From: Octopus vulgaris
Lineage: Eukaryota
Direction of reading: 5' to 3'
DNA length: 64,000 nucleotides
Assembly: GCA_951406725.2 (NCBI GenBank)
Contig: OX597818.1
Span: 33,542,001-33,606,000 of the forward strand
Position numbers and translations under genes: made by a program. This document shows positions 177 to 63,873 of this stretch, piece by piece; the stretch's first letter is position 1; each line of letters opens with the position of its first letter. The notes beneath the pieces were generated by a model. It saw nothing but the letters and a program-made list of their open reading frames with translations. It searched no databases and had not been told where the DNA came from.

Positions 177-224
177 GTCTGCGATGATGGGATATAATAA
201 ATATCCTGGAAACAACTGTAATAC
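177..224 (+). ncRNA. Degenerate type I hammerhead-ribozyme-like motif
   Basis: gtct-GCGATGA-tgggatat/atatcctg hairpin-GAAA-caactg-TA-atac. Core and stems I/III carry mismatches. Confidence 0.4.
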
Positions 225-254
225 CTATTTATAAAAGTTCTAAAATTTTCACAG

Positions 255-679
255 CTTTACTCTTTACTCTTTTACTTGTTTCAGTCATTTGACTGCGGCC
301 ATGCCGGAGCACCGCCTTTAATCGAGCAACTCGACCCCGGGACTTATTCTTTTGTAAGCTCAGTACTTATTCTATCGGTCTCTTTTGCCGAACTACTAGG
401 TAACGGGGACATAAACACACCAGCATCAGTTGTCAAGCAATGCTCGGAGGACAAACACAGACACACAAACACATACACATACGTACATACAGATATATAT
501 ATATATATATATATACGACAGGCTTCTTTCAGTTTCCGTCTACCAAATTCACTCAGAAGGCTTTGGTCGGCCCGAGGCTATAGTAGAAGACACTTGCCCA
601 ATGTGCCACGCAGTGGGACTGAACCCAGAACCACGTGGTCGGTTAACAAGCTACTTACCACACAGCCACACGTGCGCCT
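255..679 (-). mobile_element. tRNA-derived SINE family A, full length
   Basis: Minus strand reads a tRNA-like head (GTGGCTGTGTGGTAAG ... GGGTTCAGTCCCAC), conserved body, internal CA/TA microsatellite and a tail ending (GAGTAAA)n. Matches copies at 9950, 31545, 42195 and 49196. Confidence 0.9.
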
Positions 680-708
680 TGTTTTTTTTTCTCATTCTGA
701 AAAAAATT

Positions 709-941
709 ATGTATATCTATATATATATATATATATATATATATATATATATATATATGTATGTATATATATGTATGTATATATATGTATGTATATATAT
801 ATATATATATATATGTATGTATATATATGTATGTATATATATGTATGTATATATATGTATGTATATATATATGTATATATATATATATATGTATGTATAT
901 ATATATATATATATATATATATATATATATATATATATATA
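709..941. repeat. (TA)n/(TATG)n compound microsatellite
   Basis: Seen directly. Confidence 0.95.
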
Positions 942-1060
942 GTGCAAACAAGGGAGTCAGAGAAACGCAGAATGCTACTTATATCTGAACACTACTACAG
1001 AAATATTCTTTTAAAAAAACTTTTCTTCTAATTTTTCTAAATTTAATTATTTAATCGTTA

Positions 1061-1098
1061 CAGTTGAAAAGGTCTCAAAATGACCGAAACCGGTACTG
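1061..1098 (+). ncRNA. Degenerate minimal type I hammerhead-like motif
   Basis: cag-TTGAAAA-GGTC(tcaaaat)GACC-GAAA-CCGG-TA-ctg. Stems I, II and palindromic III are present; the core differs from CUGANGA at two positions. Confidence 0.5.
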
Positions 1099-61500: not shown

Positions 61501-61687
61501 GGTAATACCGGATGAAAATTTGAGTTTAGACGTATTGTTTATTTACATTTTATTTGAAAATTTACGGCACCTTTTTATTTGAAAATTTACGAAACCTTTA
61601 TTTACAAAACCTTTTTTATTTTCATTTTATCACTATCGTTTTTCCTTTAACTTTTTCTTACAACGACCGTTTCGTTTACATTCTATT

Positions 61688-62190
61688 GTGTTCCACGGGG
61701 CACTGTCTTGGGACCACTGCTTTTCATAGTGGCCTTCACAGATATGCAGACGATACGAAGGCGGGAAAGGTATGCAGTAATACACATCTGGAAGATCTTG
61801 GAAGGTATTGTGCCAAATTTTGGCACTGAAAGCTACACCAATGCCAGAACGGGTCGACACTGTACAGTATCAAAGATCCCAGCAATACCATCGCACTTCA
61901 GGACTAGTTACTGCAACAGCTTAGGTTTCAGGTGCCCCCAGCTTTTTAATATTCTCCCAAAGAACCTGAGGGACCTACACAGAGTGGACGTAGGTGTTAT
62001 CAAATCAATACTGAACCCTTGCTGTCGAGAGTCCCAGATGAACATACCTCGCGGCAAGAGGTGCAAATGAGGGTAGCGACATCAAATTCCCTTATTCACC
62101 AACTGCCACATATTACATATTAGAGGAGGCTCTCAATAATAACAGTATAGCAAAACAGCAGTGCCCCAGTATGGCCGCAGCTCTGAAAAA
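61688..62190 (+). mobile_element. CR1-group LINE 3' fragment with a large internal deletion
   Basis: GTVLGPLLFIVA..YAD is joined directly to RRERYAVIHIWKILEGIVPNFG...YCNSLGFRCPQLFNILPKNLRDL. Ends GTGCCCCAGTATGGCCGCAG. Confidence 0.85.
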
Positions 62191-63554
62191 GATGATATAT
62201 TTTAGTGATATGTTCTATTGACCTCAGACTGTTCGATATCTTATGAGTAAATGTACTTCATTACGCATCTTATCTCCCAATGTAATTCAATGAAAGACTC
62301 TCCTGCGTTCTCCTACTCACACAAATTGCTCACATGACGCAACAATTTAACTCTAAAAATATTTTTGCGTTCTTTTTTCTCTGAAACGAATACGAATTAT
62401 TACAGTATTTTACAAATGTAAAATTTACAATTTATATATACAGAAACATGGCGTATTACATTATTTTACGTATATTTTTAACCTTTAGTATCAAATTATA
62501 TAATAGTATGGCTATTTAAAGATTAATATCAGTGCGGCTATTATTTTATATTCACTTGTTAACAGTAACACTTATTAGTGCTTTTGACTGCATATTGTAT
62601 AAAAATTACATCGCAGCCACGAATGATTATTTTTTTCTTTCGGGTTTTGACTTTTCTCTATTAGTAAATATTTGTCTTTCATAAAATACTCATCTGAAGA
62701 GGTAAATGGTATCGTTGTCATGTGCTTAAACTTAATAAACGCACGACAGAATCAATCGTCTGTTTCTTTTGAAATGACAGCAAGCGGAAAATTCTCATGG
62801 ACGTAGAGTACTCGAGAGACTCGAGCAAAGTCTGACTGAAGTTTGTTGACATTTCAATTCGTTTCGACTTTAACCGTTTAACCTTTTCACAAATAATAAA
62901 ATTTGGTCAATAGAGAAGAATTATTTGGGATCAGTAAACGATTTTAAGTCCTTAACGTTTTAGGGAAAAAAATTGCTTGTCTGTGATTTCTTTTGATATA
63001 ACTCTAATTTAATACAAATTATCAACAAACCAACAAATAAAATGTATATGATAGGAGTAAGATACCATAGACTGAAATTTGAAATCAGTAATTTAAATGA
63101 GGTTAACAAACCACGTACAAACACACGCGTGTGTGTGTGTGCGTGTATATATATATATATATATATATATATATATATATATATATACATTTTATATATA
63201 CTTATATATGAATGCATGTATATATATATGTATATATATATATATATATATATATATATATATATCAGTAATAATAAAGGGTGAAATTAATTAATTAGGG
63301 ATAATTATCAATTACACCAAGTAGATTTCGGCATGTAAAAGCCCCATTCGAGGAAACTTTAAGTAATACTAAGTAATTAAGGGTTTAGCAACGAATTGCC
63401 CAACACACCGAATTTAGAAATAGCAGTCAAAGAGATATAGCTATTCCTTCTACTAAAAGGGGGATCTCAGTAAAAACACAGCACTTGAAAGGCAAACAGA
63501 CAGGTAAGAAAGAAAGAATGAAATGACGGCAATCCATCATGCAATTTTAAGTTA

Positions 63555-63646
63555 CCTACGGACGTACGTTTCGAGATCAAGTTTTAGGATAGCATAAGAA
63601 TTAGAAAATTCTACTTTACCCAAACTTCTTCTCTCGTCGGCGCAGG
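63555..63646 (-). ncRNA. Type I hammerhead-like motif, mirror copy
   Basis: Reverse complement of 63782-63873. Confidence 0.75.
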
Positions 63647-63781
63647 ATACCACAATTATGAATAATTGTATATTAAATTTTGAGATACTAGAATGCATCA
63701 TCTCAACTCAGTGATGATGCATTGAGATGATGCATTCTAGTATCTCAAAATTTAATATACAATTATTCATAATTGTGGTAT

Positions 63782-63873
63782 CCTGCGCCGACGAGAGAAG
63801 AAGTTTGGGTAAAGTAGAATTTTCTAATTCTTATGCTATCCTAAAACTTGATCTCGAAACGTACGTCCGTAGG
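63782..63873 (+). ncRNA. Type I hammerhead-like motif with long stem II (U4C core)
   Basis: CCTGCG-CCGACGA-GAGA..AAGTTTGGG...CCTAAAACTT..TCTC-GAAA-CGTACG-TC-CGTAGG. Six-bp stem I, palindromic stem III, GUC triplet. Confidence 0.75.

Follow-up and report, generated by a model that had tools for sequence, protein, structure and literature searches.

What are so many small ribozymes doing in an unremarkable stretch of octopus DNA? The question is raised by 64,000 nucleotides of the Octopus vulgaris genome (contig OX597818.1, positions 33,542,001 to 33,606,000, our G000:C5:33542001-33606000), a stretch that we call the window throughout, where an initial annotation had noticed about eleven hammerhead ribozyme motifs of type I and ascribed them to many non-autonomous retroelement families. 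The host genome comprises 2.8 Gb in 227 contigs; the window itself, with 35% GC, abounds in microsatellites and in relics of long interspersed nuclear elements (LINEs). Our answer, to which we give a probability of about 0.82, is that the sites are type I hammerheads lodged in the terminal repeats of many families of Penelope-like elements (PLEs), that at least four of them are the cut-off ends of protein-coding elements, and that those devoid of an open reading frame (ORF) probably depend for their copying, in trans, on the same reverse transcriptase (RT) and GIY-YIG endonuclease.

Hammerheads in the window and in the genome

The descriptor of the motif comprised, in this order, stem I, a 7-nt core, stem II, GAAA, a loopless palindromic stem III and UH. 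Compared with 100 dinucleotide shuffles, made block-wise in blocks of 500 nt, the window shows an excess in every tier quoted: two perfect-core matches against a mean of 0.0, five against 0.41 (maximum 4) with at most one core mismatch and at least 3 bp in stems I and II, and nine against 2.31 (maximum 6) in a looser tier. Hammerhead-like sequence is present at all eleven coordinates first noted. Six of these (23702, 47603, 58144, 58460, 63555 and 63782) pass the looser tier, while 1061 and 43571 match the descriptor only in other relaxed tiers, for a total of eight of the eleven at some stringency. Sites 177, 22330 and 32675 pass no tier in the window; the genomic families of the first two have the complete motif, mutated in the window copy, and that of the third matches in five of 15 loci, with a poor stem I. 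All three are thus best read as mutated copies of hammerhead families. Furthermore, the count falls to ten insertions, because 63555 and 63782 belong, as its arms, to a single foldback. A tract of (TA)5 or more lies within 300 nt of eight of the eleven sites, against 41% of random positions. One more perfect-core match (39982-40081, forward strand), missing from the first list, runs antisense to the ORF of a relic described below; with its long loop and imperfect palindrome, it is probably due to chance.

The covariance models of Rfam did not recover these motifs: there was no match at gathering thresholds across the window, no hammerhead at E ≤ 10 on the module at 58144 or on one copy of the family at 47603, and none among the 150 of 240 matches listed in a further search, dominated by microsatellite matches to microRNA models. 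An annotation that relies on Rfam therefore passes them over. The motifs are real, yet fewer and more ordinary than first claimed.

How ordinary they are appears from a sample of 78 arbitrary 10-kb stretches (780 kb, 0.03% of the genome), set against 20 shuffles. It contains 23 canonical motifs against 0.15, seven with a U3-A8 core against 1.1, and five with a U4C core against 0, that is, 35 against 1.25 in total, an excess of about 28-fold. An A6U core occurs six times (0.2 in shuffles), and the remaining single-base variants of the core stay near background. The density is 45 motifs per Mb (31-62), which extrapolates to some 0.8-1.7 × 10^5 per genome. The window has six descriptor matches where 2.9 would be expected from the sample (P = 0.07): the high density noted at first is real, but it is spread through the genome, and the window is not special. 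The proposed multiplicity of families holds up, with 14 families among the 32 sample motifs that passed a stricter filter. So does the dimer-type architecture, marked by a loopless palindromic stem III. It is not an artefact of the descriptor, since a scan blind to palindromes still finds a perfect one in 23 of 49 matches, against 1.2% in 30 shuffles.

The families that are represented in the window are labelled F1 to F8. Their loci were fetched as top matches, which biases them toward close copies of the query. Three lineages, F5c, F6 and F5a, account for 16, 13 and 13 matches in the 780 kb; each therefore likely has tens of thousands of copies. Additional families with the U3-A8 core were met elsewhere (L215:7050-8417, L216:2767, L228:9959), one of them as a pair spaced by 1,335 bp. 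The longest palindromic stem III seen, of 12 nt, belongs to a U4C hammerhead on the reverse strand at L075:4334-4429.

Parents, relics and modules without a traced parent

The insertions at 1061, 22330, 43571 and 58460 (F2, F3, F5c and F7) are truncated 3' ends or terminal repeats of PLEs with GIY-YIG ORFs. The first of them (942-1152, forward strand) is the 3' stub left by a Neptune-like PLE that is both young and autonomous. Its hammerhead (1061-1098) has a covariant U3-A8 core; we rejected the idea that it is degenerate, as the variant recurs in near-identical copies (40 of the 40 scored at 99-100% identity). In locus L173 the parent runs hammerhead, ORF1, ORF2 (RT and GIY-YIG), hammerhead, with the two hammerheads 4.35 kb apart and an inverted copy alongside. 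Pfam recognises RVT_1 (E = 3e-8) and, below the cut-off, GIY-YIG (E = 0.005); the linker has a CxxxxCxxC motif. Measured upstream from the core, copies are 23 to 1,500 nt long, and some have a tail of about 35 nt at one end. ORF1 (411 amino acids, no Pfam match) overlaps the RT-endonuclease ORF2 (L173:2423-5958, reverse strand; L171:2823 onward, forward strand), and at their junction, identical in both copies, a U-rich heptamer lies in frame for a possible -1 frameshift.

At 43571 a terminal repeat (pLTR) of some 200 bp stands alone (43483-43690, reverse strand; A6U core at 43576-43603); it comes from another Neptune-like lineage. With 73-77% identity it matches the 3' terminal repeat in a very young parent family, where all 150 scored matches to the endonuclease are 100% identical and open frames reach 1202 amino acids; this Neptune-like PLE, seen for instance at G000:C6:117395040-117404279, also occurs in 4.5-kb tandems. 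The three parent copies fetched all end in an F5c-type pLTR with the A6U core. All 28 F5c-type copies start no further than 100 nt upstream of the core, 14 of them inside a single 50-nt stretch; inversions are absent from 15 copies. The parents of both F2 and F5c are young, and that of F5c was likely active very recently.

The other two families are decayed. F3 (22297-22414, reverse strand) is the 3' stub of a Hydra-like PLE with a 3' untranslated region (UTR) of about 1.6-1.8 kb; the family core is canonical in the majority, with the GAAA broken in the window. Hydra-like endonuclease remnants lie upstream on the same strand in copies L311 and L330/L285, and a third copy of this long 5'-truncated element has an ORF start beyond an inverted repeat; 13 of 30 copies show head-to-head inversions. 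F7 (58318-58520, reverse strand; canonical minimal hammerhead at 58463-58498) is the 3' stub of a GIY-YIG-encoding PLE. Remnants of the endonuclease lie upstream, seven of 20 loci match the ORF frames of their partner (two being the query's own duplicated copy), and nine of 20 copies are inverted.

The link to PLEs that had been proposed thus holds, with hammerheads in PLE terminal repeats and parent ORFs for four families. Adjacency to GIY-YIG ORFs was found for four of the ten insertions, but not for the other six. The term non-autonomous fits 23702, 63555/63782 and 47603, but not the at least four of ten that are ends of protein-coding elements. The set of PLE protein queries was narrow: a first tblastn test of adjacency missed the parents of F7 and F3, and its outcome, that only F2 has a parent, was rejected once those of F7, F5c and F3 emerged. 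A metric of shared extension, confounded by microsatellites and segmental duplicates, was kept only as a pointer, and a match common to five window sites was discounted as the flank of a common short interspersed nuclear element (SINE).

The initial annotation had also suggested, as a possible source of the mobilising enzymes, a relic at 38310-40340. It is a PLE, decayed and Hydra-like in appearance (37700-40340, reverse strand, with an RT fragment at 39535-39762, GIY-YIG at 38314-38706 and a 3' UTR that runs into a (GAA)n tract). No module, however, links it to any of the sites: its best matches to the hammerhead modules are 16-25 nt long, without meaningful similarity, and a search of the 3' end of its family yielded no hammerhead. 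Its endonuclease is 35-39% identical to that of intact ORFs, one of which bears the DKT and RW motifs. A search with this endonuclease gave 13,614 first-look candidates, including 3.6-kb tandems with intact ORFs of 899 amino acids, where each unit has a single hammerhead downstream of its ORF. Intact PLE ORFs reside elsewhere in the genome, not in the window relic. Four tandem Hydra-like units occur at L071 (G000:C1:119515103-119526268), three with open frames of 867-899 amino acids; the 899-amino-acid copy in L072 has no Pfam match at E ≤ 0.01.

Three families remain without a traced parent or a repeated unit. The F1 module (100-262, forward strand; hammerhead 177-224) has a mutated core and stems in the window; the family majority has a U4C core, a 6-nt palindromic stem III and about 600 bp common to its copies. 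A first look gave 1973 candidates; the best of the scored copies are 87-92% identical, and five of 15 copies are inverted. F5a (58073-58280, forward strand) is a 210-bp module between (TA)n tracts with a minimal U4C hammerhead at 58144-58178; it is 66-68% similar to the pLTR of the F5c parent, and one of 34 copies is inverted. On contigs from sequencing runs it shows no consistent upstream extension, though such contigs cannot show ends. F5b (32610-32780, reverse strand; minimal hammerhead 32675-32706) is an old short module related to F5a, 70-86% identical to its other copies, with mixed cores and no inversion in 15 copies. Both resemble the F5c repeat. Pieces of PLE ORFs near F1 copies (L255, L062) and F5a copies (L003/L004) proved to be separate neighbouring insertions.

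Repeated units without reading frames and a SINE-like family

Two families resemble retrozymes, with repeated units devoid of an ORF. The foldback at the end of the window is a single head-to-head insertion of F8 (63266-64000, continuing to about 64066), flanked by (TA)n, whose arms, 97.7% identical, bear hammerheads at 63555-63646 (reverse strand) and 63782-63873 (forward strand), both with a U4C core. An ORF was expected downstream of 63782; there is none within the next 8.5 kb. The family is young: its 588-bp ORF-less unit forms tandems of two to three units, and inversions, at 98-99% identity (L182-L184). Among its relatives stems I and II vary, as judged by eye. F4 (23404-23983, forward strand) is built on a unit of about 425 bp, again without an ORF, in which a partial terminal direct repeat accompanies a canonical hammerhead (23702-23781) with an 8-nt palindrome; the core is canonical in 19 of 20 copies, and two of 20 are inverted. 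Tandem ORF-less units with one type I hammerhead each are thus a feature of F8, reduced to a partial repeat in F4 and absent from the other families.

The site at 47603 is more enigmatic. Here we have a 5'-truncated copy of F6 (47485-47700, forward strand) that has lost its head, with an inverted tail at 47485-47526 and a canonical minimal hammerhead at 47603-47646. It lies inside a LINE relic (46257-47900) with an RT and a C-terminal endonuclease-like part, which we take to be R4/Dong-like; an apparently similar LINE end adjoins the (AAT)n tract of F6 copies in L061 and L244. The family is about 290 bp long with a fixed 5' start. By the A-box and B-box patterns that we assumed for its head, 18 of 30 copies have both boxes at the spacing of a transfer RNA (tRNA), against 0.02% of random windows, and 27 of 30 are free of TTTT, the terminator of RNA polymerase III (Pol III), against 24%. 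These 30 were picked with a query containing the head; in an unselected sample the head is kept in four of ten hammerhead-bearing copies. No homology of the head to tRNA was found, with no Rfam tRNA match and only noise from ARAGORN at a lowered threshold. The core is canonical in 21 of 26 called copies, and the palindrome of stem III is 2 nt long. Adjacent inverted copies accompany 18 of the 30 selected copies and four of 12 unselected ones, an optional 28-nt tail is present in nine of 30, and words resembling a target-site duplication occur in only two of 30, not the pattern of LINE-driven insertion. The notion that a longer palindrome brings more inversions has no support (F4, 8 nt, 2/20; F6, 2 nt, 18/30).

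F6 is thus a SINE-like family that combines a tRNA-like head with inversions and a tail of the Penelope type. We would go further only at even odds: F6 may be a tRNA-headed SINE, transcribed by Pol III, in which the capture of a pLTR hammerhead lets a Penelope-like enzyme, and not a LINE, do the mobilising; together with the solo pLTRs and the retrozyme-like units, it would place this genome among the most ribozyme-rich known (about 10^5 motifs, unseen by Rfam) and might explain many unclassified SINEs, while the A6U core of an expanding PLE would suggest transposition without efficient cleavage.

Elsewhere in the window, two tandem arrays (2316-2776, 184 bp, 2.5 copies; 26301-26807, 129 bp, 3.9 copies) derive from a common dispersed repeat, and fragments at 19374-22180, 6378-6746, 24044-24424 and 61651-62070, with endonuclease, RT and C-terminal parts, presumably represent one further LINE family.

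Proposed mechanism, alternatives and known systems

The proposed mechanism starts from features that the loci display directly: the anatomy of the motifs, their membership of families, four parent ORFs, tandems, head-to-head inversions, optional tails and (TA)n flanks. The endonuclease would nick AT-rich DNA and the RT prime internally, immediately 3' of the hammerhead. A PLE protein has indeed been described that nicks both strands of AT-rich DNA and whose RT starts at two adjacent internal sites, which would account for the tail (PMC11167929). Early stops of the RT would leave 5'-truncated stubs (F2, F3, F7). If the RT primed at the upstream terminal repeat and continued to the 5' end of the RNA (run-off), the product would be a solo repeat of 200 bp, sharply bounded on its left, as in F5c and probably in F5a and F5b. 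The copies of F4 and F8 that exceed one unit may come from tandem or circular RNAs without an ORF, and a Pol III-type head would supply the promoter of F6. In a rotifer, pLTR sequence is enough for mobilisation in trans (PMC3846280). Pairing through the palindromic stem III is predicted to join two RNAs or two tandem units. Cleavage would probably be slow or protein-assisted and may be dispensable for insertion: the hammerhead of that PLE needed the protein in order to cleave, and mutation of its catalytic core left insertion in vitro unimpaired (PMC11167929).

Several points weigh against this explanation. No parent ORF was found with the narrow query set for F1, F4, F5a, F5b, F6 and F8, although as negatives these are weak, because that set first missed the parents of F7 and F3. 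Run-off is a postulate and dimer cleavage a prediction from the palindromic stem III. Folds of the monomers are no more stable than shuffles for eight of ten (z from -1.4 to +0.6), often pairing the core with the palindrome instead. The support from covariation in F3 is modest: in its subfamilies 94.8% of stem cells are paired (29-44% in slid controls), three pairs change on both sides and the score is reached by one of 500 shuffles, but 141 of 500 match the count of two-sided pairs, and the analysis rests on nine related sequences and a structure drawn from them. Finally, the names Neptune-like and Hydra-like derive from motifs, not from a tree.

Could the hammerhead be catalytically vestigial, kept as an RNA fold or as a pairing signal to which the PLE protein responds, so that cores drift? 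We consider this possible, though doubtful; it concerns function only and overlaps with the explanation just given. Several successful families do bear non-canonical cores. The majority core is canonical in F3, F4, F6 and F7, U3-A8 in F2, U4C in F1, F5a (19 of the 20 top copies) and F8 (21 of 21 motifs), A6U in F5c and all three copies of its very young parent, and mixed in F5b. The catalytic mutants cited above (PMC11167929) point the same way, as does cleavage in one of nine dimers (bioRxiv 10.64898/2026.07.22.740005). Yet no core is commoner than the canonical one (23 matches in the sample), and the variants lie at tolerated positions, U3-A8 being compensatory and U4C compatible with infectivity in a viroid (PMC3088659), while other changes stay near background; this suggests continued selection for the chemistry. 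The activity of A6C is low, and A6U is absent from the main text of that source. PLE hammerheads cleave poorly in vitro and, in one assay, were dispensable for insertion (PMC11167929). Because young autonomous parents, non-autonomous passengers and canonical, U3-A8, U4C and A6U cores stand here side by side, the role of these hammerheads becomes directly testable.

That the short families F5a and F6 are ordinary SINEs, mobilised by LINEs after capture of a hammerhead, is improbable. The A and B boxes without TTTT would suit this idea, as would the short repeated 9-mer that ends some F6 copies and the abundance of LINE relics in the window; the inversions, tails and scarcity of duplication-like words in F6 do not, and match instead the marks of PLE insertion (PMC8557442, PMC3846280). 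Slightly less probable still is that all modules are passive debris of autonomous PLEs, with no independent non-autonomous families and the missing parents unsampled. In its favour, parents were identified for four of ten insertions, in two cases only at the second attempt, and F5a and F5b resemble the F5c pLTR. The idea is already contradicted for F8, by its 588-bp tandems, and for F6, by its own A/B-box head and fixed start, and it sits badly with the 425-bp period of F4. Chance matches in AT-rich repetitive DNA, which do give the loose tiers a real background (2.3 per window) and may account for one perfect-core match, are rejected for the set and next to negligible, all ten insertions belonging to multi-copy motif-bearing families and the sample excess being about 28-fold.

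How much of this was known? The initial annotation overstated the novelty, since many, mostly solitary, minimal hammerhead families per genome had been described in PLEs (Cervera and de la Pena 2014, PMC4209133). Common to that description are the type I topology, the loopless or tiny palindromic stem III, the extra base between A9 and stem II in short families, the U3-A8 variant, the heterogeneity of families and the opposite-strand pairs. The numbers differ, about 2,000-9,000 motifs there against some 10^5 estimated here, and the text compared has no mention of the U4C and A6U cores that are family-wide here. With the Neptune- and Hydra-like PLEs (Craig et al. 2021, PMC8557442) our elements share the C-terminal GIY-YIG, partial tandems, 5' inversions, tail and (TA)n targets, as well as the CxxxxCxxC linker (F2 parent) and the DKT and RW motifs (899-amino-acid family); the F2 parent differs, in what that article describes, by its two ORFs joined at a possible -1 slippery site. 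The comparison covers main texts; the supplements of both articles may list cephalopod motifs.

Like metazoan retrozymes without long terminal repeats (PMC7229834; bioRxiv 10.64898/2026.07.22.740005), F8 and F4 have ORF-less 400-600 bp tandem units with one type I hammerhead each, beside PLEs. They differ by short partial tandems, head-to-head inversions and the U4C core, and are known here from DNA. As many as 120,000 retrozyme copies have been reported in axolotl, and about 5,000 in a mussel (PMC7229834); animal retrozymes, sampled in vertebrates, insects and coral, have been argued to be non-autonomous PLE derivatives (bioRxiv 10.64898/2026.07.22.740005). F6 resembles the hammerhead SINE-like repeats of Schistosoma (PMC6765202) in having a Pol III-type promoter followed by a hammerhead; those repeats, however, lie in tandem and are freed by cleavage, whereas F6 is dispersed as monomers, has a minimal hammerhead of the PLE type and bears the marks of PLE insertion. 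No published description of a tRNA-headed, PLE-dependent SINE was found in the main texts of mostly non-subscription papers. Among cephalopods, the giant squid has 235 Rfam hammerhead loci (PMC6962438), and an octopus repeat annotation counts 893 recently active unclassified SINE families in a main text without hammerheads or ribozymes (PMC13282606). The phenomenon as a whole was thus already known. The new details are the tRNA-headed family, where a SINE may depend on a Penelope-like enzyme, and the A6U core; this family and the non-canonical cores of young families are what is worth following.

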